A stretch of DNA of 64,000 nucleotides from a bacterium. Lineage in GTDB: Bacteria; Electryoneota; Electryoneia; Electryoneales; Electryoneaceae. Shown in pieces: positions 49,240 to 62,996 of the stretch; the stretch's first letter is position 1; each line of letters begins with the position of its first letter. The position numbers were made by a program, and so were the translations under genes. A model generated the notes under the pieces. It saw only the letters and a program-made list of their open reading frames with translations. It was not told the DNA's origin and searched no databases. The DNA lies in contig OY769902.1 in the NCBI GenBank assembly GCA_963669175.1, positions 3,616,001 through 3,680,000 on the forward strand, given 5' to 3'.

Positions 49240-49875
49240 ATGATGGAACATAAAAGTCTGGCTGATGACCTTCGCGATCTGGCCGTCCAATGCGGAACGG
49301 ATACAGTCAGCCTGGGAGATATCACCAGGATCATGGGTGAACGTGGCTTTGGGATGCTTTTCATCATTCTGTCACTCCCCAGCGCAATGCCAGTCCCGGC
49401 CCCCGGATACAGCACCCCATTCGGCATCCTGATGGTCCTGCTCGGACTCCAGCAACTGGTTGGCAAGTCCAGCCCCTACCTGCCGCAATGGGCGCTCAAT
49501 CGTGAACTCAAATCAAAGACCATGGCTAAAATCTTCAATGCCGGTGGCGCTTTCTTCGACAAGATGGAATACCTGATCAAACCGCGCTTTGGTTGGATTG
49601 GAAGCCGACTCGGGCAATCTGTCATCAGCCTGCTGGTTATCATTATGGCCACCTTGATGATTTTCCCGATTCCGTTGACAAATACCGCTCCGGCCATTGT
49701 AATCTTTATTCTCGGCATCGGGATCCTTGAACGTGATGGGCTGGCGATTGCCTTTGGCGCTGTTGTGGGCTGGCTGGCAGTTCTTCTCTACGGATTTGTT
49801 ATTTATTCCATCATTTACCTTGGCACCAGCCCGGAAGAAGTGAAGGAAATGGTCAAAGGATTCCTGGGAATGTGA
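49240..49875 (+). CDS. ExoD-family exopolysaccharide biosynthesis membrane protein
   Basis: GERGFG, LSLPSAMPVPAPG, IPLTNTAPA and ERDG. Confidence 0.88.
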   Translation: MMEHKSLADDLRDLAVQCGTDTVSLGDITRIMGERGFGMLFIILSLPSAMPVPAPGYSTPFGILMVLLGLQQLVGKSSPYLPQWALNRELKSKTMAKIFNAGGAFFDKMEYLIKPRFGWIGSRLGQSVISLLVIIMATLMIFPIPLTNTAPAIVIFILGIGILERDGLAIAFGAVVGWLAVLLYGFVIYSIIYLGTSPEEVKEMVKGFLGM

Positions 49876-49983
49876 GCAATGTGCGCATAATAAGTGCAGC
49901 ACATGCCAGCAGGCGTGTATATTGTTCACACCTGCTTACCACCTCAACATCATATGTTTATATTTACAAGTACTTAACAAAAC

Positions 49984-49999
49984 TGGCACACGGCTTGTA
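49984..49999 (+). promoter_or_regulatory. Probable sigma54 promoter
   Basis: TGGCACACGGCTTGTA: perfect -24 TGGCAC, exact spacing, TTGT in place of TTGC. Confidence 0.55.
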
Positions 50000-50009
50000 A
50001 CTGTGCATA

Positions 50010-50256
50010 TCAGACCCCCAAGGCAGCCAAACCTTGGTTGTGGAATCAGGCCGACGACTGAAGGATTGGGCTTTCCCACCCCTTCCGAAGCCGAAGTCTT
50101 AACCACCATTCTTTCGGAAGTGGCTTGATTTCCGGGTCTGTTTTTAGAAAGAGGGTTCCCGAAAGGGACTGAACATAGCAGTTGGTGCATCCCCGCACCG
50201 TTTGGCCTCAGCCATTCGCAACACTTGGCCGGTGTTGTAGGCTGGGGCTTCTCTTT
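50010..50256 (+). ncRNA. Putative structured two-domain ncRNA
   Basis: Domain 1 is closed by CAGACCC/GGGTCTG with inner helices; domain 2 is closed by AAAGAG/CTCTTT with three hairpins; start coincides with the sigma54 +1. Confidence 0.55.
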
Positions 50257-50396
50257 GCGACTTAGGTTATAAACAATTACAAGAATCTTCTTCCACACCC
50301 TGATCTCCATACTGCGCACAGCATACGCAGAAGCAGGATTGAATCTGACAGCAGTATGCACTATACTCCAGCACGAAGAATACAATTGGAGATAGA

Positions 50397-51308
50397 GTGA
50401 CCAACGGATACAGCAAAATACCAGTGAACGGCCCCTTCCGTTTGGCAACGGCGCTTAATGTCCTTTTCCGTTATGAACGCCCACGGCTCAATCCAAGGGA
50501 ACCGGCTCGCGCATCCTTTTCCCTGGAAGTCCCTGATGGCGCGGTGGAGGTTACTGTCCGACAACAGCGCCCCGGCGATACACTGGAATTCCTCGTACTT
50601 GGCGACCGTGCTTCACAGGAGACCATCGAGTATGTCAATAAAACACTGATCAGGATGTTCGCGCTGGATGTTGATGCATCTGACTTTTTTGAACGTGTGC
50701 GTGATGATTCACATTTGAAACTGGCCTCTTCCCTGTACCCGGATTTGCGTCCAGTTCGCATGCCAACCCCATTTGAAGCAGCGATAAAACTGATCATCGG
50801 GCATCGGATTTCGCCGGAAACAGCGGTAGCGTTGATACGGAACCTGGTTGAAGTTTGCGGAATTATTCCGTCCGGACGTCCAAACGCCAGACCGGCATTC
50901 CCTGGAAGGGCGACGATTCTTGCCATGCCGGATAAACTCCTGGAGATCACCGGTATCGTAAATGAGAAGATTCAGAAGATTCGCGAGCTGGCCTCTTCAC
51001 AATTCGGTGAAGAAGCTGATATGGAATCGATTTTCGCCGAGAGTGATCCGATGATTGCCAGGAAAAGACTGGAAGATCTCCCGGGCATCGGCAGGCGAAC
51101 AGCCGAGCATATCCTGCTTCGCGCTTACCCTTTCAATGACATGTTGAATGATGACCCGATCCTTCAACGTGCCGTTCAACGGTTCTATCATCTTGCGCAA
51201 ATGCCTGACGAGAAAACCATGAAACGATTTGCTCAGCCTTTTATGCCGTGGCGAAGCTGGTGGATGTTCCTGCTTTATACTGTAAATGAGACCTCGGTAA
51301 TTGTGTGA
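50397..51308 (+). CDS. DNA-3-methyladenine glycosylase II (AlkA family)
   Basis: PFEAAIKLIIG, AFP and HhH motif LEDLPGIGRRTAE; C-terminal PWRS. Confidence 0.85.
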   Translation: MTNGYSKIPVNGPFRLATALNVLFRYERPRLNPREPARASFSLEVPDGAVEVTVRQQRPGDTLEFLVLGDRASQETIEYVNKTLIRMFALDVDASDFFERVRDDSHLKLASSLYPDLRPVRMPTPFEAAIKLIIGHRISPETAVALIRNLVEVCGIIPSGRPNARPAFPGRATILAMPDKLLEITGIVNEKIQKIRELASSQFGEEADMESIFAESDPMIARKRLEDLPGIGRRTAEHILLRAYPFNDMLNDDPILQRAVQRFYHLAQMPDEKTMKRFAQPFMPWRSWWMFLLYTVNETSVIV

Positions 51309-51704
51309 GCCATGGTGATTTTTCGGTTATCGCTTGTTGCTTATAGCGCTTGTGCTTATCTTAGTGAGTTATGTTCCATCTGTCAGATTGTTTCAGAAGC
51401 AGGAATTTCTGAATAACCCTATGATTTCAGGCATATCTGCTTTGTCATATATTATGGTTGATGAATCATGTGGGCTTCATCAGCAGATGTATGACTGAAA
51501 TCAGATGAAAATCTTTGCAAGTTATTGATTTTCAAAAGCAGCAAATCACATTTCATATAATATCAACATGTGGTGCAGGAAGGTTGAAAACGACAAACAA
51601 GATGACGTTACTCAAGCAAACCTGTTTTAATTCCGTTGCCACCCGGTGAAACAGGCCCCGTAAAAGAGTAGCGAAACGGTTTACATAGTTTGAAGGAGAG
51701 TCCC

Positions 51705-53492
51705 ATGAGGCATAAAACGCGACACCTGTACACGTTAGCACTTATTGCGCTGGTGGCAGTATTGGCGATGAGCGGCGCAGTAAATGCATTCTACCAGAGC
51801 CTGCTTCATGAGAATTTTGAGCAGGATCAGGGGCTTTGGCCCTGGGATACGGACAACATAGGTGACCAGGGGTGGATGATTTCCCCCGGCGCCAACACGC
51901 AGCATCCTTACTACACCTGGGCAGTCGAAGAAAGCACGATTTACCACTACATTGGCCCAGATTATTACCGGTCTATCTGGTGCTGTGGTCTTCCCAACAA
52001 CTACCTGCCCGGCCAGGATGATTATCCGCCGAACCAGCTTGCATGGGTAATCTGGGGTCCCTTTGACATCAACAGCCTCGATATGTTCCAGGTTGGTGGC
52101 GTCTTTTACCATTGGGCTGAAACTGAACCCTGGTACAGTGGCGCTGGCGATGCTTTCTGGATGGTCGCGAAGGATGACCCGAACCTGCAACAGCTTGACA
52201 TTACCGAATGGTATATCGGTTACGCGCATGAGACCGGTGTAACGCAACCGCCGCAACAATGGATCCCCATGTCGTTTGACTTCTTCGACCTGGTTACCTG
52301 GGAAGGTGATTCCGTTGCCCTTATGCCCGAAGATGGCGAAACACTGAACAACGTCTATTTCGGATTTGTGTTCTACTCCGATAGCGATGATCTGCGTGGA
52401 CGTGGTGTATTCCTCGACGATATTGATTTTGGTTACGACGATGGTCAGTTTGACTATCAGGTCATGACACCGATGTACTACAAGTATGCAGATTCAGTCC
52501 TTACACAGGCGTATACCATTCACCAGAATGATACGATTGCCATCAAGAACCGTTTTAACGCGCATGGAGCCACACCAGAGATTGCGGCAACACATGTTGT
52601 TTATATCAACAACGATGTCAGGAATCCGGAATCTGAATGGATCCCCCTGGATTCCATGACCGGTCAGTGGATCGCCCATCCCAATGGACGCATCAACAAC
52701 GTGTATTTCGAAGAATACTGGGTACCGGATGATACCGGCTATTGGGGCGTCAAGATCTCGCTTGATGTTGACGATGTTCAGATGGAATCGGATGAGACCA
52801 ATAACATCTTTGTCGATACGATCTACGTAGATGCACCGCAAACAGCGCCTTACATCATATGGCATGACCTGATCGGAACTTCGGAAAACGACACGCTTGT
52901 CGTGGTTGACGTTGGCGAAGTTGATGCTTTAACGATTGATTACACGGCAATTAACTCACCGCCATCCGAGGCGGCAGGGTTATCGTTCCTGTATTGTGAC
53001 AACGATACCAGCACACAAGATGTCATCATGGAATTGTTCGGTATCATCATTGATAACGAACGGCATCAGGTTGAGTGGCACTTGTCAGAGTTGGAAGATT
53101 CCGTGGTCTATCGTCTTTATGCCTTCATGGATGACGGCAGCTTCCTTCCGATTACGGATCAGGCTCCGCAGTACATCATGAAGGTCGAGACCGACGATGT
53201 TGATGATGTGCAGGCATCGACTTTACCGACAGAGTTTGCTATTGAATCCATATACCCGAACCCCTTCAACCCGACAGTTGAAGTAGAGTTTGCCATGCCC
53301 CAGGCTGGCGACATCAAGATTCAGTGGTATTCACTCGAAGGGCGTCTGGTTGATGTACAAACTATTGCAGGCGCGATGCCAGGCTTCCACAAGATTGCCT
53401 GGACACCGCAGAATCTCGCCAGCGGTATGTACCTGATGCGTGCCAGTAGCCCAGCCGGCGAATTGACGGGCAAGGTTCTTTACCTGAAATAA
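51705..53492 (+). CDS. Secreted protein with CARDB-like domain and T9SS type A sorting domain
   Basis: Signal peptide, GVFLDDI, ESDETNN and C-terminal YPNPFNP...YSLEGRLV...SGMYL...KVLYLK. Confidence 0.78.
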   Translation: MRHKTRHLYTLALIALVAVLAMSGAVNAFYQSLLHENFEQDQGLWPWDTDNIGDQGWMISPGANTQHPYYTWAVEESTIYHYIGPDYYRSIWCCGLPNNYLPGQDDYPPNQLAWVIWGPFDINSLDMFQVGGVFYHWAETEPWYSGAGDAFWMVAKDDPNLQQLDITEWYIGYAHETGVTQPPQQWIPMSFDFFDLVTWEGDSVALMPEDGETLNNVYFGFVFYSDSDDLRGRGVFLDDIDFGYDDGQFDYQVMTPMYYKYADSVLTQAYTIHQNDTIAIKNRFNAHGATPEIAATHVVYINNDVRNPESEWIPLDSMTGQWIAHPNGRINNVYFEEYWVPDDTGYWGVKISLDVDDVQMESDETNNIFVDTIYVDAPQTAPYIIWHDLIGTSENDTLVVVDVGEVDALTIDYTAINSPPSEAAGLSFLYCDNDTSTQDVIMELFGIIIDNERHQVEWHLSELEDSVVYRLYAFMDDGSFLPITDQAPQYIMKVETDDVDDVQASTLPTEFAIESIYPNPFNPTVEVEFAMPQAGDIKIQWYSLEGRLVDVQTIAGAMPGFHKIAWTPQNLASGMYLMRASSPAGELTGKVLYLK

Positions 53493-53514
53493 AATGATCC
53501 TGATTGCTTCCCCG

Positions 53515-53550
53515 GCCCCTTTCCGAATTTGGGAAGGGGCTTTTTTTTTT
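53515..53550 (+). terminator. Intrinsic terminator
   Basis: GCCCCTTTCC-GAATTT-GGGAAGGGGC-T10. Confidence 0.85.
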
Positions 53551-53657
53551 GTGCTGTGTCATGTTTATCACTCTCCCATTGTCTCTATTCCGGGTGACCT
53601 ATCTTATCGATGTGCTTATATTCCAAGTTCATCCGAACGAAAACAGGATTGACTCTC

Positions 53658-54683
53658 ATGCATGAAAAACTGGTTGAGCTGGATCAGCATCGAAGTGCTT
53701 TTCTAGACGAGCTTTCCGGCATCTCGGCATTAGATTCGCTTGAACAGCTCCGGGTTAAGTACATAGGTCGAAAAGGACTGATCGCCGGGCTCTTCAAGGA
53801 AGTCGGAAAACTTCCCAATGAGGTAAAAGGACCATTTGGGAAAGCGTTGAATGAGCTGAAAACACTTGCCACAGAACAGATCGAAGCAGCACAACAACGT
53901 CTGGAAGGTGAACAGATACGTACCGAAGTGGATTTGACACTTCCAGCCAGACTGCCTCGAACGGGTTCATATCATCCCCTGGCGCTGGTGGAGCGTGAAG
54001 TTCGCAAAATCTTTCAGCGTATGGGTTTTACGGTTGAACGTGGTCCGGAAATCGAAGATGCCTGGCACTTGTTTGACGCTTTAAATACACCGGAGTGGCA
54101 TCCTGCCCGTGAACCTACCGATACGTTTTATCTGGAAGAAGGCGGCATTCTGCGTACGGAAACCAGCCCGATCCAGATCCGTGTCATGGAACGGGACAAG
54201 CCACCGATCCGCATCATTGCGCCGGGAAAAACGTATAGAAACGACAAACCAGATGCCACCCATTCCCCCATGTTCAGCCAGGTTGAAGGGTTATACGTGG
54301 ACAAAGGTGTGACCATGGCGGACCTGAAAGGAACAGTACTGGCATTTTACCGTGCTTTCTTCGGATCGTCTGTGAAAACACGCTTCCGTCCGCATTTCTT
54401 CCCCTTTACCGAACCATCGGCAGAAGTAGACATCACCTGCGCTTTTTGCGGCGGGAATGGCTGCCGTGTTTGTAAAGGCTCAGGCTGGATTGAGATGGGC
54501 GGTTGCGGCATGGTGGATCCCAATGTGTTTGACGCTGTCGGGATTGATTCAGAGGTCTACACCGGCTGGGCCTTCGGGCTTGGCATCGAACGGCTTTCCA
54601 TGCTGGCATACGATATAAACGACATCAGGCTTTTCCACGAAAACGATTACAGGTTCCTGGGACAATTTGGAGGCAGGCGATGA
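53658..54683 (+). CDS. pheS: Phenylalanine-tRNA ligase alpha subunit
   Basis: HPAREPTDTFY, LRTETSP, DATHSPMFSQVEG, FPFTEPSAE and AFGLGIERL. Confidence 0.97.
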   Translation: MHEKLVELDQHRSAFLDELSGISALDSLEQLRVKYIGRKGLIAGLFKEVGKLPNEVKGPFGKALNELKTLATEQIEAAQQRLEGEQIRTEVDLTLPARLPRTGSYHPLALVEREVRKIFQRMGFTVERGPEIEDAWHLFDALNTPEWHPAREPTDTFYLEEGGILRTETSPIQIRVMERDKPPIRIIAPGKTYRNDKPDATHSPMFSQVEGLYVDKGVTMADLKGTVLAFYRAFFGSSVKTRFRPHFFPFTEPSAEVDITCAFCGGNGCRVCKGSGWIEMGGCGMVDPNVFDAVGIDSEVYTGWAFGLGIERLSMLAYDINDIRLFHENDYRFLGQFGGRR

Positions 54684-57109
54684 AGGTATCATATAACTGG
54701 CTGAAGGAATTCGTCGATTTCGACGCAACTCCCGAGCAAATCGCCGAGATCCTCACTTTCCAGGCGTTTGAGCTGGAAAGCATGGAAAAAGTCACCCGCC
54801 ATGTGACAGGTGTCGTCGTTGGTAAAATCCTTGAAGTCACCCCACATCCGAACGCGGACAAGCTCAAACTGACCAAAGTCGATATTGGAACGGAAGTTCT
54901 TGATATCGTTTGTGGCGCTCCGAATTGCCGTGCCGGGATTAAAGCACCAGTGGCAAAGCCGGGAACACAACTGGGCGATATTACCGTAACGCCGCGAAAA
55001 CTGCGTGGCGAACCATCTAACGGTATCATCCTGTCAGAACGTGAGATGAACATCAGCGGCGATCATGGCGGTATCCTGATTCTGGATGATTCCCTCGAAA
55101 TCGGCACAGAGATGTCCACCCTGGTTCCACCGGAAGACACCATCCTCGACTTCGAGATCACGGTCAATCGTCCGGATGCGATGAGTCATCTTGGTATCGC
55201 GCGTGAACTGGCAGCGCATTTCAACCTGCCACTGACCATGCCGCCGACAGATGTCACAGAAATCGATCTGCCCGCTTCGGACTGGATTAAAGTGGATATC
55301 GAGGATCCGGAGTATGGTCCACGCTATGTGGCACGAGCGGCGCAGCATGTCAAAGTCGCTCCTTCCCCGCTCTGGATGAAAGCCCGCTTGTGGGGATTGG
55401 GACAGCGTCCGATCAATAACGTCGTTGATATAACCAACTATGTCCTGCTCGAGCTGGGACATCCGTTGCACGCCTTCAATTATCACCTGGTCAAGGATGG
55501 TCACATCATTGTCCGCCTTGCCAATGAAGGTGAGAAGTTCACCACGCTGGATGATCAGGAACGTACGATGAAGACCACGGACCTGATGATTGCCGACCCT
55601 GAGAAGGGTGTCGCTGTTGCCGGAGTCATGGGTGGCGCGAACAGCGAAGTGGATGAATCGACAAGTGACGTCCTGATCGAAGCAGCTTATTTCAATCCTG
55701 TCAGTGTCCGAAAGACTTCGAAACACCTGGGCCTGATTACGGAAGCCTCCAAGCGCTTCGAACGTGGCCAGGATCCGGCAATGGCGCCTGTTGCGGCACA
55801 ACGCTGCGCGCATATGCTGCAACAATTGACCGATGCCGAGATCCTGAGAGGCGCGGTTGATGCGTATCCGCAGGAAATTCTGCCATGGACGGTTACGCTT
55901 CGCCCCTCACGCGTCAATCATGTTCTTGGAGTCGATATCAAGCGTGAAGACGTGCTTGACAGTCTGCACAGATTGAACCTAGAGGTTGCTGAAGCGGGCG
56001 AAGACAGTCTGACCGTCACGATTCCAACTTTCCGCCCGGATCTGACTCGTGAGATTGACCTCGTTGAAGAAGTTGCCCGTATTGTGGGCTATTACAAGGT
56101 GCCGGATGCGATCCATTCCAGTATTGTTCTTGAGCGCAAGGATACCGGTGTTGAAAGCTTGCTGGAAGCGGCGTCTGATACGATGGTTGGCCTTGGATAC
56201 AACCAGGCTGTCACCATTGCCATGATCCAGGACAGCGATCAGACAGCATTCCAGCCATCACTCCATCCGTTCCATATTAATCATGCTCTTAGCAAGGAGA
56301 TGAACAGCTTCCGTGCATCTTTGATCCCTGCTTTGCTTCGAGTTGCGGAATACAACTTGAACCGTGGTGTCGAAGATATTCGTTTATTCGAAATTGGGCA
56401 GACCCAGGTAGCAGAAAAAGTGGCTGGTGGCTGGTTCAGTGAATATAGTGACGCCCGTGAACATCTGGCATTTATTTCAATTGGATCCTCTCGTTCGGCT
56501 TCCTTTGACGAGAAATCACCAAGAGAATATGATATTTTTGATCTTAAAGGGGACGTAACTGGACTTTTGTCAGGTATTTGTCTTGACAATTTCCCGGTTC
56601 TTTCTTATGATACGGTTGAGCATCTTGACCTTGCTTTATCCATGTTTGATGCGCAGGGGAATTTGCTTTTGAGGGCTGGTCGGTTAGCGCGAGAAACTGC
56701 AGAAGCATTCGGAATAGATAAACCGGTATTTGTGTGCGAAGTAGATTTGTTTGCACTGGTACCACTCGAGGGTCACGAGGGGATTCTCAGACCGGGTGCC
56801 GCGAGTCGTTTTCATTCCTTCTCTCGCTTTCCGACAAATGAGCGCGATTTAGCCTTTATTGCCCCCAAAACAGTTGCAGCCGGTACTATTGAGCAGATCA
56901 TTCGGGAAAAAGCCGGAGCATTGCTGGAAAGTGTCAGACTGTTTGATTTGTACGAAGGAAAACCGTTGGCTGATGATACACGGAGCCTGGCATTCAGGCT
57001 GGTATTCAGGGCTGACGATAGAACATTGACAGATGATGATGTCAATCCACTGGTAGCAAAAGTTATTTCTGCCGTGGAAAGTTTGCCGCAAGTAACATTG
57101 CGGTCATAA
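54680..57109 (+). CDS. pheT: Phenylalanine-tRNA ligase beta subunit
   Basis: MKVSYNWLKE, HPNADKL, VCGAPN, NRPDAMS, RPDLTREIDLVEEV and a C-terminal FDX-ACB domain. Confidence 0.97.
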   Translation: MKVSYNWLKEFVDFDATPEQIAEILTFQAFELESMEKVTRHVTGVVVGKILEVTPHPNADKLKLTKVDIGTEVLDIVCGAPNCRAGIKAPVAKPGTQLGDITVTPRKLRGEPSNGIILSEREMNISGDHGGILILDDSLEIGTEMSTLVPPEDTILDFEITVNRPDAMSHLGIARELAAHFNLPLTMPPTDVTEIDLPASDWIKVDIEDPEYGPRYVARAAQHVKVAPSPLWMKARLWGLGQRPINNVVDITNYVLLELGHPLHAFNYHLVKDGHIIVRLANEGEKFTTLDDQERTMKTTDLMIADPEKGVAVAGVMGGANSEVDESTSDVLIEAAYFNPVSVRKTSKHLGLITEASKRFERGQDPAMAPVAAQRCAHMLQQLTDAEILRGAVDAYPQEILPWTVTLRPSRVNHVLGVDIKREDVLDSLHRLNLEVAEAGEDSLTVTIPTFRPDLTREIDLVEEVARIVGYYKVPDAIHSSIVLERKDTGVESLLEAASDTMVGLGYNQAVTIAMIQDSDQTAFQPSLHPFHINHALSKEMNSFRASLIPALLRVAEYNLNRGVEDIRLFEIGQTQVAEKVAGGWFSEYSDAREHLAFISIGSSRSASFDEKSPREYDIFDLKGDVTGLLSGICLDNFPVLSYDTVEHLDLALSMFDAQGNLLLRAGRLARETAEAFGIDKPVFVCEVDLFALVPLEGHEGILRPGAASRFHSFSRFPTNERDLAFIAPKTVAAGTIEQIIREKAGALLESVRLFDLYEGKPLADDTRSLAFRLVFRADDRTLTDDDVNPLVAKVISAVESLPQVTLRS

Positions 57110-57153
57110 TTGTTATTAGTATTTGATTCCGATTCCAACGAGTGAGACTAGTG

Positions 57154-57411
57154 ATGCAGATCGAAGATTTACAACAACTAGAAGCAAAAATCGCTGGCGT
57201 GCTTGAGAAAATGGAAACACTCAAGCAGGAAAACGGCGATTTGCAAAGACGGCTGGACGACCTCCAGTCGCGATACGATGACAAAGCAGCCAGGCTTGAA
57301 GAAGTATCCCTAGAGCTTGAAAAAGCCCGATCCAATGCAAGGGACTTCGAAAAGGAGGAGAAGATCCGCACGAAGGTGTCGAGTCTTCTGGAGAAGCTCG
57401 ATAGCTTCTAA
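57154..57411 (+). CDS. zapB: Cell division protein ZapB-like coiled coil
   Basis: LQQLEAKI..LKQEN..IRTKVSSLLEKL; pheT-zapB-zapA synteny. Confidence 0.75.
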   Translation: MQIEDLQQLEAKIAGVLEKMETLKQENGDLQRRLDDLQSRYDDKAARLEEVSLELEKARSNARDFEKEEKIRTKVSSLLEKLDSF

Positions 57412-57490
57412 GCTACGTTGCAGTGTTGGTTCTTAAGGAGCGATTTTGATAAAGTAACGGCTACATTACACTTCAGGATACGGACGGTCC

Positions 57491-57799
57491 ATGAACGAGA
57501 AAAACCGGGTGGTACAGGTCGACATATTTGGGCAAGTTTATTCCATCCGGGCCAGCGTGCGTGACGAGGAGTATATCCAGTCCATAGCCCGGTATATCGA
57601 CGGCAAGATGCGGAAAATTGACAAGACGATGAAACCGAATTCCGCACAGAAAGTAGCCATTTTAGCTGCTTTGAATGTTGCTGACGAACTACATACGCTC
57701 AAGCGGAAATACCAGGAACAATCGGACCGGCTGGCGAAGTATAAGGAGAAAATCCAGACATTTTCTGACGTTCTGGACAAGAATCTGATCCAGAAATAG
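57491..57799 (+). CDS. zapA: Cell division protein ZapA
   Basis: VDIFGQVYSIR, YIDGKM and VAILAALNVADE. Confidence 0.92.
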   Translation: MNEKNRVVQVDIFGQVYSIRASVRDEEYIQSIARYIDGKMRKIDKTMKPNSAQKVAILAALNVADELHTLKRKYQEQSDRLAKYKEKIQTFSDVLDKNLIQK

Positions 57800-57816
57800 C
57801 CGTAAAAAAGTTGCTA

Positions 57817-58002
57817 GAAAGCCCTGCACCTCACGCAGGTTACAAAAGAAGAACCAACACTTTAGAAAAGGGAGTTCGACTTCGGTGGTGGCTGGCATGC
57901 CTCCCTGCCTCGCAGGCTAGAGGAAGTCAAATACTACTGGGCGGACACCCACCGTGTTGTACACGGTTCTCTCTTCTTTGCCTGTGGGGGTGTTGGGTTT
58001 TT
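57817..58002 (+). ncRNA. ssrS: 6S RNA
   Basis: ~185-nt rod (GCCCTGCACCTCACGCAGG pairs with CCTGTGGGGGTGTTGGG) with a central bubble; zapA-ssrS-rny synteny. Confidence 0.85.
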
Positions 58003-58032
58003 TATATACATAAAGGATAGGAGCTTAACTCC

Positions 58033-59601
58033 ATGTTAGGATACATCATCGCCGGGATCGTCGGCCTGCTGCTGGGCGTCGCGGTGGGAGCTGTTGTCGG
58101 CATTAAGCTGAAAACAGCCGAAGACAAGAAGAAGAAACTGACCGCTCAGCAGGAAGCGGATCAGATCCTGGAGATCGCCAAAAAAGAGGCTGATTCGCTG
58201 AAACGCGAAAAACTCCTGGAAGCCAGGGACGAAGCTATCGCCCTGAAACGTGAACAAGACAAGCAATACGATAAAAAACTTGATGAACTGCGATCAGAGC
58301 AGAAAAAATTGCACGATCGTGAAGTGGCGCTCGATCGTCGTTTTGAGAAAAACCGGCAGTTGGAAAAAGAACTGAAAGATAAAGATCGTGAAATAAAAAG
58401 GTTAATGCAGTCCAACCAGGACAAACAGGCGTTTCTCGATGATGCCGTAACCAAGCAGAAAGAGCTGTTGGAACGTACCGCCCAGATGACTCGCGAAGAG
58501 GCACTGGAGCAACTCAAGGGCACCCTGATCGACAAGGCGCGTCGCCAGACCGCGGAAACGATCAAGGAAATGCGCGATAAGGCTCGCCTGGAAGCCAACC
58601 GTGAAGCTCGTGAGATCATCATTCAGGCAATTCAACGTAGCGCAGCGGATCATGCGGCAGAGAACACCGTCACCGTCATCAACCTGCCGAACGATGATGT
58701 CAAGGGACGGATAATCGGACGTGAAGGCCGCAACATTCGCGCGTTGGAAGCGGCTACCGGCGTTGATATCATCGTTGACGACACACCGGAAGCAGTTATT
58801 CTTTCAAGTTTTGACCCGTACCGCCGTGAAATCAGCCGTATCGCACTGGAGAAGCTGATTACGGACGGTCGCATCCATCCTGCACGTATCGAGGAAGTGG
58901 TTGCCAAGGCTCAGAAAGAACTGGATGAACGTGTGCTCGAACTGGGTAAAAACGCCCTGATCGAAGCCAAGGTACACGGCCTCCATCCTGAATTGATAAA
59001 GTTGCTGGGACGTTTGAACTACCGTACCAGCTACGGCCAGAATGTCCTGAAGCATGTTACTGAAGTAGCGCACCTGTCCGGTCTGATGGCCATTGAGCTT
59101 GGTCTTGACGCCAAGATCGCACGCCGCGCCGGTCTGTTGCATGACATCGGCAAGGCGGTTGACCGGGAAAGCGAAGGCACCCACGTCAAGCTCGGCCTTG
59201 AACTGGCAAAGAAATACGGCGAAGGTGGCGTGGTTCAGAACGCGATCATATCGCACCATGAAGACGCACCACCGGATAACCCGATTTCCGTGCTGGTGCA
59301 AGCCGCAGACGCGATCAGCAGTTCACGTCCGGGCGCACGCCGTGAATCCTTGGAAGGCTATATCCAGCGTATGCACGGGTTGGAAGAAATCGCGTCCAAC
59401 TTCGAGGGCATCAACAAGGTTTTCGCGATCCAGGCAGGACGCGAGATCCGCTGCATCGTAGAGCATGAGAAAATCACCGATGCCCTGGCCGATGCGCTGT
59501 CCCACGACATCGCGGAAAGGATCGAGCATGAACTTGAATACCCGGGCCAGATCAAGGTTACGGTGATCCGTGAGTATCGTGCCGTGGATTATGCAAAGTA
59601 G
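58033..59601 (+). CDS. rny: Ribonuclease Y
   Basis: TM anchor, coiled coil, KH motif [15 protein letters not shown] motif GLLHDIGK and [12 protein letters not shown]. Confidence 0.97.
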
Positions 59602-59634
59602 GCTTTACCTCTAGAGATTGAACATTCCCCCCCC

Positions 59635-59656
59635 CCCGCTTCGGCGGGTTTTTTTT
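59635..59656 (+). terminator. Intrinsic terminator after rny
   Basis: CCCGC-TTCG-GCGGG-T8. Confidence 0.85.
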
Positions 59657-59867
59657 ATACTATCCCATTGATAAATATTTTACTTAAAGAATCAAATTAC
59701 TCGAAACTCATATACTCAAACATTTTTGAGTTGAGTATAATTTCTATATTACTAAAGCTTGAGAATATTGCCAGTGACTCTAGAGTTGAAGATAATTAGC
59801 TGTCTCTATATTGACATTTGAAACTACATTTAGTATCATTTTTGTCAGTAAGAAAAAAGCGGAGACT

Positions 59868-60200
59868 ATGAGCAAAATCCAGAAGACTTTTGAACAGCTT
59901 ACGGGAAAAGGTAGAAAACTACCTAACGAAATCGAGTTTAAAGTTCTTAAAGATGTGCTCGAGGAAGCCGGATGTACAGTAACACACTTTCCAACTGGTT
60001 CACACTGGCGTGTAACCCATCCAGATTTATTTAAACACCCAGATTTTAGTAGATCAGGCCATTTTGAGATTCCAGTTCACGGTGGAAGACAGGGTGGTCA
60101 ACATGTCAGAAGAGCAAGGATCTACATACAGAAAGTTGCGAAAGTCGTGGAGTTCTTAAGGGAATACGAGGAGATAAAACGTGGAAAAGCAAGATCTTAA
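59868..60200 (+). CDS. HicA-like toxin
   Basis: Basic 110-aa protein with FKVLKDVLEEAGC..TGSHWRVTHP..IPVH..IYIQKV (HicA GSH motif); upstream of a HicB-like gene. Confidence 0.75.
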   Translation: MSKIQKTFEQLTGKGRKLPNEIEFKVLKDVLEEAGCTVTHFPTGSHWRVTHPDLFKHPDFSRSGHFEIPVHGGRQGGQHVRRARIYIQKVAKVVEFLREYEEIKRGKARS

Positions 60201-60765
60201 GGCACTTATCGATAGTCACTATCCTATTACACTTATCAAAACAGAAGATGGTATTGAAGGATGGTATGAGGATTTTGGACGTGGTACAACTGGTACCATT
60301 GCTGATACATTGGAAGAGGTTGTATTCGATCTAGAGAGTATTTTGATGAGTACTCTTGAGTATATGGTTGAACAAAGTCTCGAAATTCCTCAACCACATA
60401 GCGAAATAATTGATAACTTCAGTGGCCAGTTTATTGTCAGAGTCCCAAGAAGTTTGCATGCTGACCTTTCTAAAAACGCTAAAAGAGAAGGAGTTAGTTT
60501 GAATCTCTATGTAAATAATATTTTATCTGAACGCAATATGCTCAGTCAAGTCAATAATAAAATTAACAATTTACAATTAGGACACGATAAAATATTTGAT
60601 AAATTTCAATCCATTATACCTGAGCCAAAGAAAGACACCTATACATTTGATTATAATCCTACCCCTAGTCAATCAACAGCTTTGATATTGGAAATGAATA
60701 CACCATCGGTAAAAGGAGAAACCCAACCATGGTCAAGTAATAATTCAACCGCAAATTCGAATTAG
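60181..60765 (+). CDS. HicB-family antitoxin with C-terminal extension (candidate chaperone-addiction tail)
   Basis: N-terminal partial RNase H-like fold, IPQP, RHH motif FSGQFIVRVPRSLHADL...EGVSLN, then ~70 extra residues. Confidence 0.82.
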   Translation: MEKQDLKALIDSHYPITLIKTEDGIEGWYEDFGRGTTGTIADTLEEVVFDLESILMSTLEYMVEQSLEIPQPHSEIIDNFSGQFIVRVPRSLHADLSKNAKREGVSLNLYVNNILSERNMLSQVNNKINNLQLGHDKIFDKFQSIIPEPKKDTYTFDYNPTPSQSTALILEMNTPSVKGETQPWSSNNSTANSN

Positions 60766-60791
60766 AGTAAAGAAACTACTTGGAGGTAGCA

Positions 60792-61274
60792 GTGAGGTCA
60801 AAGGAAAATACGATTAGCTTTGAAGAAGCGAAAAACTGCCTCTCATACGAAGAATACAACCGTTTACTTTCGGAGTGTGAACTGCAGCAGATAGAACTGG
60901 TCAGTCTTTCTTCAAAGAAATTTGGATCATATGAAAATAAGTCCTTTAAATTGGAACCGAACTTAACACATAAATACTTTAAGACAAAGAAAAATCAATC
61001 CTATAAATTTGAGACTAATTTTTCTTTACATTCTTATGAGGCGAGAGATAATTCTAAGGGAAGTGATTCTAAGCGTGATAAACTAGTAGAGATACAGTGT
61101 AAGTATAATATCTATCTTACTACAGATAATGATTTACCTGAGGAATTTTTAGTAATTTACATTAACCTAACTTTAGGTTTAGTAATATGGCCTTTTATCA
61201 GAGAAATGGTTGTCGATATATCGCAAAAAATGATGCTACCACCTATCATTCTTCCTATGATAAGAGTAGGATAA
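60792..61274 (+). CDS. SecB-like chaperone (third component of a TAC system)
   Basis: GGAGG RBS then GTG; ELQQIELVSL...VEIQCKYNI...IWPFIREMVVDISQKMMLPPIILP resembles the SecB C-terminal (F/W)PY.RE...(G/M).PP..LP motif. Confidence 0.75.
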   Translation: MRSKENTISFEEAKNCLSYEEYNRLLSECELQQIELVSLSSKKFGSYENKSFKLEPNLTHKYFKTKKNQSYKFETNFSLHSYEARDNSKGSDSKRDKLVEIQCKYNIYLTTDNDLPEEFLVIYINLTLGLVIWPFIREMVVDISQKMMLPPIILPMIRVG

Positions 61275-61356
61275 CACAAAATCCCTTAAGATATTGATGT
61301 ATTGGTATTTCTCAAGACACCTAGAAATGGGTGTCTTTTCTCTTGCCATGAAGGAT

Positions 61357-61577
61357 AAAAAAAATCGGACGACCGAAGAGCCGTCCGAACAAGAGTATTT
61401 TCGAAAGTCAGTGGGAAGAGGCCACCTATCAACCACTGTCTTTCACGAAACCAGGGGAGGGCCTGGCTTCGCCATCCGGTTTCACCCGCTCGGGTGGCGA
61501 AACGTGGTGCGCCCTAGGACGCCGCATCCCCGCACCTAAACGTCTGTCGAAGCGCTCACACGTTTCGTCGCCCTTGC
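61357..61577 (-). ncRNA. Putative ~220-nt sigma54-dependent multibranch ncRNA with terminator
   Basis: GCAAGGG/CUCUUGU closing stem, four internal hairpins and terminator UCGGACGG..UCGUCCGA-U8. Confidence 0.6.
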
Positions 61578-61587
61578 TACACCTTTT

Positions 61588-61603
61588 TGCAAGCGACAGA
61601 CCA
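61588..61603 (-). promoter_or_regulatory. Probable sigma54 promoter
   Basis: Minus strand TGGTCTGTCGCTTGCA: GG-N10-GC spacing with perfect TTGCA; -24 partly degenerate. Confidence 0.55.
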
Positions 61604-61970
61604 GTTTGGTATTATCGGGCTTCTGGAGACCTCCCCTGAATATTTCACGAGATAGAACCTCTACTAGCAAACACATACATCATCACTAATCCGGGGCTGG
61701 GTATCCTGTGCACACAGGTGGGAACGACGTGCGCAGTTTTGTATTATTATCCGTCCCATAGAGTTGATTCACTGTATCAGCCCACCTTCCAGCGCAGTTG
61801 TCTTCATCCTGCAATGCCTGCTACAGTGAGAAGCAGACGAATTCTCCACGGGACTTTTTACCTTGGTTAGCGTAGTCCCCCTTGGTATATTAAAGGTTTA
61901 GAAAATTTGGGAGTTCATGGGAACTCCCGCATGGTTGTAACGTACCAAACGCAACACATATGGGGTCGCT

Positions 61971-62996
61971 ATGCGAGTGCTGATCACCGGAGGCGCTGGG
62001 TTTATTGGATCAAACCTCGTGCATTACCTGGTAAGACTCCGTCCTGAGTGGGAGATTGTCAACCTGGACGCACTCACCTATGCCGGAAACCTGGAAAACC
62101 TGACTGCGATTGAGAACCACCCCGGCTATACTTTCGTCCATGCTGATATTACCGATGACAAGGCTGTCGCAGCCACTCTCGACAAATACAGGCCGGATGC
62201 GATCATGCATCTCGCGGCTGAATCGCATGTTGACCGTTCTGTTCATGGCGCTCAAGTATTTGTCCATACCAACGTCATGGGAACACAAATCCTGCTGGAT
62301 CATTTCCGCAGGGTGAATCCGGATGGACGTTTTCTCCAGGTATCCACGGATGAAGTCTATGGCTCGCTTGGGCCTGAAGGCTATTTCACCGAAGAAACTT
62401 CATTGGCGCCCAATAGCCCCTATTCGGCTTCCAAGACTGGCGCTGACATGCTGGTGCGAGCTGCGCACCACACGCACGGTATGGACACGGTCATTACCCG
62501 GTGCAGCAATAACTACGGCCCATACCAGTTCCCTGAGAAGTTAATCCCGCTTATGATCGCCAACGCCATGGCCGGGAAGCAGCTACCTGTCTACGGTGAT
62601 GGGATGAATGTCCGGGACTGGTTATACGTCGAGGATCATTGTTCTGCACTGGTGACCGTCCTGGAAAAGGGGAAAGCCGGTGAGGTATACAATATTGGTG
62701 GTCACAACGAAAGGGCTAACCTGCATATTGTCAAGCTGATCCTCCAGCATTTGGGGGCGTCGGAAGAGCTGATCCATTTTGTCACGGATCGTCCCGGCCA
62801 TGACCGTCGTTATGCGATTGATGCAGGCAAGATAGAACGTGAACTGGGCTGGACACCGAGCCGTACCTTTGAGCAAGCGCTTCCGGCTACGATTGAGTGG
62901 TACAAGGATAACCAGGAATGGGTACAGCGTGTCATGAGTGGTGAATATCAGAAGTATTACCAGGATATGTACGGAAGCAGGCTGGCATCCGAGTAA
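61971..62996 (+). CDS. rfbB: dTDP-glucose 4,6-dehydratase
   Basis: TGGAGFIGS, DALTYAGN, AAESHVDRS, STDEVYG, PYSASK and DRPGHDRRY. Confidence 0.95.
   Translation: MRVLITGGAGFIGSNLVHYLVRLRPEWEIVNLDALTYAGNLENLTAIENHPGYTFVHADITDDKAVAATLDKYRPDAIMHLAAESHVDRSVHGAQVFVHTNVMGTQILLDHFRRVNPDGRFLQVSTDEVYGSLGPEGYFTEETSLAPNSPYSASKTGADMLVRAAHHTHGMDTVITRCSNNYGPYQFPEKLIPLMIANAMAGKQLPVYGDGMNVRDWLYVEDHCSALVTVLEKGKAGEVYNIGGHNERANLHIVKLILQHLGASEELIHFVTDRPGHDRRYAIDAGKIERELGWTPSRTFEQALPATIEWYKDNQEWVQRVMSGEYQKYYQDMYGSRLASE

Follow-up and report, generated by a model that had tools for sequence, protein, structure and literature searches.

The DNA analysed here, referred to below as the window, is a stretch of 64,000 nucleotides (positions 3616001-3680000 of contig OY769902.1, which by itself makes up the genome of 5,447,365 bases), and it contains two predicted structured RNAs, named RNA 2 and RNA 3, which are complementary to each other over 13 nucleotides (nt). 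RNA 2 is the putative leader of a gene for an AlkA-like DNA glycosylase, and RNA 3 is a putative stand-alone small RNA (sRNA) read from the opposite strand. By combining the anatomy of the two RNAs with their conservation in related genomes and with the occurrence of the shared motif in other transcripts, we arrive at the following reading: RNA 3 is probably a trans-acting sRNA, placed under a sigma-54-type promoter, which would expose its seed in a loop, act on several targets and pair in trans with RNA 2. From sequence we infer the transcription of the two RNAs, their pairing in the cell and the effect of this pairing.

The two RNAs match exactly over 13 nucleotides

A scan of the window located the 13-mer GCATCCCCGCACC exactly on the plus strand at positions 50187-50199 and 61524-61536. 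A search of the whole genome returned the same two exact copies only, together with four places that are one base off, and both searches bear out the match pointed out by the first-pass annotation, a model's reading of the bare letters of this DNA. No third match was found in the window when up to one mismatch was allowed. In 100 dinucleotide shuffles the mean number of GCATCCCCGCACC matches was 0.10, and none of them (0/100) had two or more. Since RNA 3 is read from the minus strand and RNA 2 from the plus strand, the transcripts are complementary at the 13-mer; the same-strand case, which the first-pass annotation had named as a refutation, is not what the sequence indicates.

The chance of a 13-mer match within one RNA of ~250 nt chosen beforehand is ~0.001-0.002, and the figure of ~0.002 proposed earlier for two regions of ~250 nt is a fair estimate. 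On the scale of the genome, 13-base complements to RNA 3 number 63, versus ~36 expected; the match is therefore remarkable only as one that joins two particular RNAs.

RNA 3, a predicted stand-alone small RNA

The features of RNA 3 in the window are the following.

61357..61577, minus strand: RNA 3, predicted stand-alone sRNA of ~220 nt with a multi-helix fold, defined by a covariance model and a covarying structure
61588..61603, minus strand: sigma-54-type promoter of RNA 3, TGGTCT-N5-TTGCA, conserved in homologues
61518..61544, minus strand: seed hairpin with stem GACGUU/GGCGUC and a 15-nt loop, core invariant
61536-61524, minus strand: the 13-mer GGUGCGGGGAUGC in the loop, with invariant core GCGGGGAUGC
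61357..61388, minus strand: intrinsic terminator, a 10-base-pair (bp) stem (hairpin 61388-61365) followed by T8; the stem covaries (helix 10)

A covariance model built on four sequences matches RNA 3 in 7 of the 16 family genomes, namely the genome of the window (G000), G001, G003, G010, G006, G004 and G007, with expectation (E) values from 8e-69 to 9e-11. When the model was run over 79 genomes of the phylum, the same seven were returned along with one weak match (E 1.5e-4); outside its family, RNA 3 is not convincingly present in the phylum, as judged from these sequences. BLAST recovered RNA 3 in 4 of 41 genomes, the covariance model being required for the others. In metagenomes, a scan that made no use of the seed yielded two contigs, one carrying the G003 RNA 3 sequence over the model alignment and the other a new variant. 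Weak model matches at a second G000 site and in G013, G005, G008 and G037 (E at least 1e-4) were not taken as RNA 3. The second G000 match overlaps a coding region for the C-terminal domain of the type IX secretion system (T9SS), and loop-like 12-mers found in G008 lie in apparent coding contexts.

On the alignment of the seven sequences, which was fitted to the model and favours the structure somewhat, 92.7% of the cells are paired and 27 of the 61 pairs are changed on both sides; no shuffle was as good (0/500), and slid controls gave 7-11 pairs. Specifically, the 13-mer takes up 13 of the 15 bases of the loop closed by GACGUU/GGCGUC (61544-61518), just as had been annotated. This loop is present in all seven homologues, and its core GCGGGGAUGC is identical in all of them and in one more metagenome variant, with covarying stems on its flanks. 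The energy needed to open the loop site is low (3-5 kcal/mol).

Upstream of each of the seven homologues, a GG-N10-GC element with an invariant TTGC appears at the same distance. In G000, G003 and G010, RNA 3 and the neighbouring plus-strand genes are convergent, and RNA 3 is therefore without a downstream gene. By its sequence RNA 3 is an independent unit, having a promoter in 7/7 homologues, a terminator and no gene downstream, and its transcription is predicted. The minus-strand orientation given to it in the annotation is upheld by the terminator, by the conserved sigma-54 promoter and by the G-U pairs in the covarying structure.

A search of the whole window against Rfam 15 at the gathering threshold detected only four tRNAs and 6S RNA, with a match at neither RNA site, and permissive scans of 49800-50500 and 61250-62000 gave chance-level matches only (best E 0.2). 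RNA 3 has a second conserved motif, CTTCGCCATCCG; its repeated complements are located in coding sequence and were discarded as candidate sites.

RNA 2, a predicted leader of the AlkA-like glycosylase gene

The features of RNA 2 and of its gene in the window are listed below.

49984..49999, plus strand: sigma-54-type promoter of RNA 2, TGGCAC-N5-TTGTA, at the same place in 7/7 leaders
50010..50258, plus strand: RNA 2, predicted structured leader RNA of ~250 nt, its start placed from the promoter
50184..50199, plus strand: hairpin GGUGC-AUCCCC-GCACC with the 13-mer (50187-50199), complementary to the RNA 3 loop
50204..50256, plus strand: terminator, a long hairpin GGCCUCAGCC...GGCUGGGGCU followed by UCUCUUU, with compensatory changes in the stem
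50397..51308, plus strand: gene for an AlkA-like HhH-GPD DNA glycosylase of 303 amino acids (aa), downstream of RNA 2

RNA 2 can be divided into a first domain, which extends to ~50147, and a second one made of the 13-mer hairpin and the terminator. Its predicted fold comprises a long-range closing helix, several hairpins with conserved loops, the 13-mer hairpin and, 4 nt further on, the terminator hairpin. The consensus structure, derived from four sequences, has 42 pairs, 12 of which are changed on both sides. The 13-mer spans the hairpin GGUGC-AUCCCC-GCACC, in agreement with the earlier description of this site. The terminator motif suggests that RNA 2 has a discrete 3' end; the T-runs of the terminators are longer in the homologues, and a simple terminator scan caught that of G000 in part. 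The plus-strand orientation, also proposed earlier, is sustained by the sigma-54 promoter in 7/7 leaders, by the terminators with T-runs of the homologues and by many G-U pairs.

The downstream protein is a distant AlkA-like glycosylase (PDB 1diz, E 8e-8), with a match to the NCBIfam model DNA-3-methyladenine glycosylase 2 (E 1.6e-10) that lies under the curated cut-off, and its gene is present in 15 of the 16 family genomes. In G009 this gene (L043/L044, G009:C20:2816-3707) appears as two overlapping pieces in different frames, that is, a frameshift or an assembly error.

BLAST recovered RNA 2 in 2 of 41 genomes (found only in G009), and synteny with the glycosylase gene revealed the others. 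When the DNA upstream of each glycosylase copy is compared, the architecture of the leader is modular across the genomes.

G000, G003, G009, G010: full-length leader
G008: 5' domain with its own terminator, without the 13-mer
G006: leader reduced to the promoter, the 13-mer hairpin and the terminator; G004 has a degenerate form of it
Remaining family genomes: no leader

In all seven genomes that have it (G000, G003, G009, G010, G006, G004 and G008), the leader opens with the sigma-54-type promoter, a -24/-12 element, and adjoins the glycosylase gene in the same orientation. The complementary site always lies 4-8 nt before the terminator, with the gene downstream (G000, G003, G010, G009 and G006), and the distance from promoter to site varies, being 178 nt in G000 and 33 nt in G006. 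The conservation of RNA 2 ends at the edges of the complementary block.

Pattern matches in G001:C19 and G009:C26 were rejected as RNA 2, being Walker-A coding sequence, and in a 19-mer scan of genome contigs 16 of 19 loci were chance matches in unrelated GC-rich genomes. The 5' domain of RNA 2 (50010-50147, plus strand) shows the conserved loops CUGCCAA and CCCACCCUUCCGAAGCC and a closing helix followed by a U-run. It is this domain alone, with its own terminator, that forms the G008 leader (L055), and it might act as a module of its own, sensing a signal or binding a protein.

The complementarity is kept in four genera

The pattern searches at family and order level covered the same 16 genomes. 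For those in which one or both elements were recovered, the sites are listed below with the outcome of a helix test, in which every ungapped helix that RNA 3 can form with the 520 nt preceding the glycosylase gene was scored against 300 shuffles. The ungapped-helix score was used together with opening energies in place of ViennaRNA duplexfold, which gave unrealistic full-length duplexes.

G000: RNA 2 site GCAUCCCCGCACC; RNA 3 loop GGUGCGGGGAUGC; helix of 14 bp including one G-U; shuffles at least as good 0/300
G003: RNA 2 site GCAUCCCCGCACC; RNA 3 loop GGUGCGGGGAUGC; helix of 16 bp; shuffles at least as good 0/300
G010: RNA 2 site GCAUCCCUGCACC (one C>U); RNA 3 loop GGUGCGGGGAUGC; helix of 14 bp; shuffles at least as good 7/300
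G006: RNA 2 site GCAUCCCCGCGCC (one A>G); RNA 3 loop AUCGCGGGGAUGC; helix of 12 bp; shuffles at least as good 3/300
G004: RNA 2 site GCAUCACUGCACC, degenerate; RNA 3 loop GUUGCGGGGAUGC; no significant helix, internal G-A mismatch; shuffles at least as good 262/300
G007: leader without the site; RNA 3 loop UCUGCGGGGAUGC; no significant helix; shuffles at least as good 270/300
G009: RNA 2 site GCGUCCCCGCGCC (two A>G); RNA 3 not found
G001: leader not assembled; RNA 3 loop GGUGCGGGGAUGC

In four of the six genomes with both loci (G000, G003, G010 and G006, belonging to four genera), the helix between the loop and the 13-mer is the top-scoring one, and the complementarity, whose conservation in relatives had been set as a test by the first-pass annotation, is thus kept in these four. 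In the same four genomes the duplex energy ranges from -25 to -28 kcal/mol, the cost of opening is 3-5 kcal/mol for RNA 3 and 6-10 kcal/mol for RNA 2, and the net pairing energy is -13 to -17 kcal/mol.

Fifteen genomes have a readable leader region: the element occurs in six, RNA 3 in six and both in five, which corresponds to a hypergeometric probability, computed by hand and uncorrected for relatedness, of ~0.01. G008 has neither the 13-mer element nor RNA 3. In G001 the contig stops ~8 nt short of the expected RNA 2 promoter, so that the absence of RNA 2 there is uninformative.

A hairpin presenting AUCCCC in its loop is found in the RNA 2 of G000, G003, G010 (with 4 bp) and G006 (with a 10-nt loop), and two of its five pairs are left in G009. 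The block is kept in G009 and the local hairpin is lost there, which argues that the block is conserved for something beyond the hairpin. From these models, initiation of the pairing by a loop-loop contact is plausible in four of the five genomes with a non-degenerate RNA 2 site.

The RNA 3 seed matches a conserved site in other mRNAs

The sequence GCATCCCCGC is the exact complement of the RNA 3 core GCGGGGAUGC. In G000 it occurs in 16 copies, versus 11-15 expected from Markov models, and is not over-represented. Its location is more telling: of the 14 copies outside both RNAs, six sit in sense orientation 20-53 nt upstream of the starts of open reading frames (ORFs) of 743-810 aa. Five of these six ORFs carry a type IX secretion C-terminal domain, which has a background of ~330 of 5261 crude ORFs in G000, and the sixth encodes a TPR/PMT_2 membrane protein. 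Moreover, of the 9-mers along the complement of the loop, only those of the core are enriched before ORF starts (9 of 53 and 9 of 54 occurrences), versus 0-2 of 37-70 for the flanking ones. In G003, four of the eight other GCATCCCCGC copies are followed, 16-36 nt further on, by ORFs of 681-862 aa, and three are in AT-rich intergenic DNA; in G011, a genome without RNA 3, none of the nine copies is clearly upstream of such ORFs.

Orthologues of the TPR/PMT_2 gene are present in 14 of the 16 family genomes, and their 5' untranslated regions (UTRs), of which that of G000 lies around 1318748-1318790, fall into three groups.

G000, G001, G003, G007, G004, G006, G009: exact GCATCCCCGC 5-9 nt upstream of a GGAGG-type Shine-Dalgarno sequence, with diverged flanks
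G010: GTGTCCCCGCACC in that place, giving a 13-nt pairing with the loop that includes two G-U pairs
G008, G005, G011, G013, G014, G015: no copy, and no RNA 3

The site is therefore exact in six of the seven genomes bearing RNA 3 and a G-U variant in the seventh, and it is absent from 6/6 genomes without RNA 3 other than G009, which is the exception. The 5'UTRs of T9SS cargo genes in G000 and G003 also carry the site. The intergenic DNA before the next T9SS gene of the window (51309-51689) has no copy of the motif. When the RNA 2 and TPR/PMT_2 sites are considered together, five of the six core substitutions are C>U or A>G, changes that keep the pairing, through G-U, in RNA alone and on this strand alone.

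All together, the matches of the seed to the 5'UTRs of TPR/PMT_2 and of T9SS cargo genes make RNA 3 look like a multi-target regulator. The option of an sRNA and its target, one of those considered at first pass, is strengthened by the exact complementarity between the 10-nt core of RNA 3 and a conserved 5'UTR element located elsewhere. As to the cargo genes themselves, the T9SS cargo set of G000 is very large, with ~330 ORFs of at least 150 aa matching the C-terminal-domain profile.

Sigma-54-type promoters precede both RNAs

The genome encodes rpoN and ~22 strong enhancer-binding proteins (Sigma54_activat matches), and the proposal that the two RNAs are co-regulated fits the sigma-54-type promoters found on both of them.

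In addition, TGYGCA motifs (TGCGCAC, TGTGCAT), often paired, were observed in 8 of 14 examined regions upstream of RNA 2 and RNA 3 promoters; in the window they lie at ~49880-49980 and 61640-61760, and they recur at homologous loci. As a lead only, they may be sites for a common enhancer-binding protein. Three copies of a different motif of ~14 nt (TCTCATYCCMGCGAA or the complementary sequence) precede the expected RNA 2 promoter in G001 (L045 1-120), and a T9SS cargo gene of G000 likewise has three copies upstream (~2902470-2902640, L112).

A model for the pairing of RNA 3 with its targets

In the mechanism that we propose, RNA 3 would be a stand-alone, sigma-54-dependent and Hfq-independent sRNA, whose apical 15-nt loop would display a G-rich seed with GCGGGGAUGC as its core, extended to GGUGCGGGGAUGC in the clade of the window. 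RNA 2 would be a second sigma-54-dependent transcript, a glycosylase leader ending at a strong intrinsic terminator, and would carry the best and longest seed match of the genome 4 nt upstream of this terminator. AUCCCC and GGGGAU would probably make the first, loop-loop contact, from which the pairing would probably spread to 12-16 bp as the 5-bp stem of RNA 2 opens. The same seed would also pair with C-rich sites by the ribosome-binding sites of a small regulon. No Hfq gene was detected, which fits a seed exposed in a structured loop.

For RNA 2, the complementarity to the seed reaches 16 bp in G003 and, in G000, 13 bp with a further G-U pair, versus 10-13 bp at the mRNA sites. We tentatively suggest that RNA 2 may be a terminated leader that titrates RNA 3 as a decoy or sponge. 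That RNA 3 would control the fate or the read-through of the glycosylase leader is conceivable and, in our judgement, rather doubtful; the decoy is slightly favoured because no alternative fold joins the site to the terminator. On a wider and speculative view, for which we claim little confidence, the two RNAs may form a Hfq-independent, sigma-54-wired circuit in the candidate phylum of Ca. Electryonea, in which RNA 3 would co-ordinate the glycosyltransferase-like TPR/PMT_2 gene with a subset of T9SS cargo and RNA 2 would serve as sponge or as sRNA-controlled terminator.

Evidence against the model, and alternative explanations

Several observations weigh against the trans-acting role assigned to RNA 3 and against its pairing with RNA 2. 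As reported above, no significant helix was found in G004 and G007. G009 has both the RNA 2 site and the 5'UTR site and no detectable RNA 3; its assembly is 89% complete and is also without the gene that flanks RNA 3 in G000, G001 and G003, and the absence of RNA 3 there is therefore uninformative. The genomes bearing RNA 3 may be one clade, in which case the co-occurrence counts are not independent. A search for compensatory changes across homologues, suggested together with the original observation, returned only one change on both sides linking the RNAs, a U-A to C-G replacement in G006. This change is equally compensated by the stem of RNA 2 itself (GGUGC/GCACC to GGCGC/GCGCC), and the partner base of RNA 3 would pair as U or as C; it is thus a positive case of little weight, explained as well by the hairpin of RNA 2. 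The conserved complementarity could reflect the simple inheritance of two motifs constrained independently.

Other adverse points concern the sites and the promoters. The total numbers of GCATCCCCGC copies per genome, 10-49 with RNA 3 versus 5-25 without, do not track RNA 3; they fail to separate the genomes, and for this reason they were not used as evidence. A 14-nt complement of the loop in the 3'UTR of an aldolase-like gene (G000 2908403-2908416, minus strand, L131) lies between a small hairpin and the terminator and is unconserved in both orthologous 3'UTRs examined (G010 and G006); it was set aside as due to chance or lineage-specific. A loose sigma-54 pattern has 257 matches genome-wide versus 313 in a reversed control, and is not enriched, and the strict consensus has 10 matches versus ~5 by our own estimate. 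The promoter motif alone is thus unspecific on the genome scale, and the evidence for the promoters of RNA 2 and RNA 3 is their positional conservation. Finally, in constrained folds with the 13-mer blocked, the terminator helix is unaltered in G000, G003, G010 and G006, so that no switch mechanism is visible, and a sigma-70-like match at 50339-50367, between the RNA 2 terminator and the glycosylase gene, could provide the gene with its own promoter.

The best surviving alternative accepts the pairing and gives it another purpose, namely control in cis: RNA 3 would bind nascent RNA 2 and alter its termination, processing or stability, and hence the expression of the glycosylase, in what would be a trans-encoded version of antisense-RNA-mediated attenuation. 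This is possible, and we hold it to be on the unlikely side. It is consistent with RNA 2 immediately preceding the co-oriented glycosylase gene in 7/7 cases, with the fixed spacing of 4-8 nt between site and terminator whatever the distance to the promoter, with the lack of a second sigma-54 promoter between terminator and gene in G000, and with a TGGCA-type element found directly before the gene in leaderless relatives. Against it stand the terminator kept under constrained folding, where no antiterminator or pre-emptor structure involving the site was found, the sigma-70-like match between terminator and gene, and the fact that a DNA glycosylase has no evident connection in function with the rest of the predicted targets.

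A less probable explanation, to which we give low credence, is coincidence followed by inheritance. The loop and the hairpin would each be conserved for reasons of their own, such as protein binding, tertiary contacts or the terminator context, and a chance match in the ancestor would have been retained. The 63 complements of 13 nt in the genome, the almost nil covariation between the two RNAs, the pairing degraded or missing in G004 and G007, and the possible descent of the genomes keeping it from one clade all speak for this explanation. It has to contend, however, with the low a priori chance for two RNAs of 250 nt (~0.001-0.002), and with the fact that the match joins the invariant single-stranded loop of RNA 3 to the most conserved block of RNA 2. 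Furthermore, the same 10-nt core is the conserved 5'UTR footprint of another gene, in seven genera and co-occurring with RNA 3, and the substitutions seen are mostly compatible with G-U pairing.

That the shared 13 bp would serve as a site on double-stranded DNA where one protein binds within both units, as an operator or a roadblock, and not as an interface between RNAs, is very improbable: the two loci do have the same chromosomal orientation, an apparently common promoter type and possibly common upstream TGYGCA motifs, but the 13-mer is not palindromic, lies at +33 to +178 from the promoter in RNA 2 homologues with a fixed distance to the terminator, sits in an RNA loop between covarying stems, has substitutions biased towards keeping G-U on one strand only, and adjoins the Shine-Dalgarno sequence in mRNAs.

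Comparison with known RNA regulators

Hfq-independent, trans-encoded sRNAs with a seed exposed in a loop are known, for instance those of the RsaE/RoxS type and the Bacteroides sRNAs. Like these, RNA 3 has its own predicted promoter, an intrinsic terminator and a short invariant seed held in a structured scaffold. As for RsaE/RoxS-type sRNAs, its sites are near the ribosome-binding sites of several mRNAs and no Hfq gene was found. Unlike RsaE/RoxS, the seed of RNA 3 is G-rich and its targets are C-rich, which is the reverse arrangement; RNA 3 also stands behind a sigma-54-type promoter, comes from a candidate phylum of the FCB group, and shows no sequence or structure homology to any Rfam family.

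Sigma-54-dependent sRNAs include Qrr1-5 of Vibrio and GlmY/GlmZ of enterobacteria, whose -24/-12 promoters depend on enhancer-binding proteins; the action of GlmY on GlmZ relies on protein mimicry and not on pairing, and the Qrr sRNAs are Hfq-dependent siblings. The present case resembles them in having more than one putative sRNA under the same sigma factor in one circuit. It differs from them in that RNA 2 and RNA 3 are a complementary pair, and Rfam reveals no homology.

In the replication genes of the plasmids pT181 and pIP501/pAMbeta1, attenuation is exerted by an antisense RNA that is encoded in cis, is fully complementary and redirects a pre-emptor structure to a terminator. As in pT181 and pIP501, the regulator would meet a leader hairpin loop upstream of the intrinsic terminator that precedes a gene, with a loop-to-loop contact. 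In contrast to them, the RNA 3 locus is 11 kb from that of RNA 2 in G000 and stands on another contig in G003, the match is of 13 nt, and no mutually exclusive pre-emptor and terminator folds were found for RNA 2.

A sponge is described in Caulobacter, where CrfA is reported to sponge SisA-D and the pairs were recovered in association with Hfq (PMC12559287). The likeness would consist in two non-coding transcripts that pair through the seed of the regulator, in a decoy that is separately regulated, and in a decoy match (13-16 bp) longer than the mRNA sites (10-13 bp). The two cases differ in that no Hfq gene was found here and that RNA 2 is a leader attached to a gene, for which titration is proposed from the sequence data.

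The kind of system, a seed sRNA with a target or sponge, is thus known, and by sequence RNA 2 and RNA 3 appear to be new families, restricted to one bacterial family as far as searched. In the literature, in titles and listings, supplements aside, no description of either RNA was found.

To our knowledge, post-transcriptional regulation is essentially unknown in uncultivated phyla of the FCB group, and those phyla of the group known to us outside the well-studied Bacteroides are also without Hfq. This locus offers a concrete candidate sRNA with a defined seed, a conserved mRNA site by the ribosome-binding site and a second non-coding partner, and RNA 3 would link genes of the cell surface and of secretion to control by sigma-54. 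If RNA 2 is a decoy or an sRNA-gated terminator, the mechanisms of sponging or attenuation would be extended to a new lineage and to a new class of promoter; specifically, an sRNA-controlled terminator would parallel the antisense attenuation of plasmids, here with a regulator encoded in trans and a DNA-repair gene of the chromosome as its object. Should RNA 2 be neither, two new and well-supported structured RNA families would still be at hand.

Neighbouring features and further observations

Three ORFs lie between the RNase Y gene of the window (58033-59601) and RNA 3: a HicB-family antitoxin-like ORF at 60181-60765 on the plus strand, and two, at 59811-60200 and 60780-61274, which have no family match. 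A 6S RNA (RF00013, 64.4 bits) maps to 57818-58002 on the plus strand, directly upstream of the RNase Y gene, and neither of the two has an apparent link to the RNAs described here. Elsewhere in G000, tandem 9-nt repeats similar to CTTTGCGCC were noticed at ~1526150-1526230 and ~2908020-2908060, and at L113; such repeats precede a T9SS cargo gene and also occur close to the aldolase-like locus.

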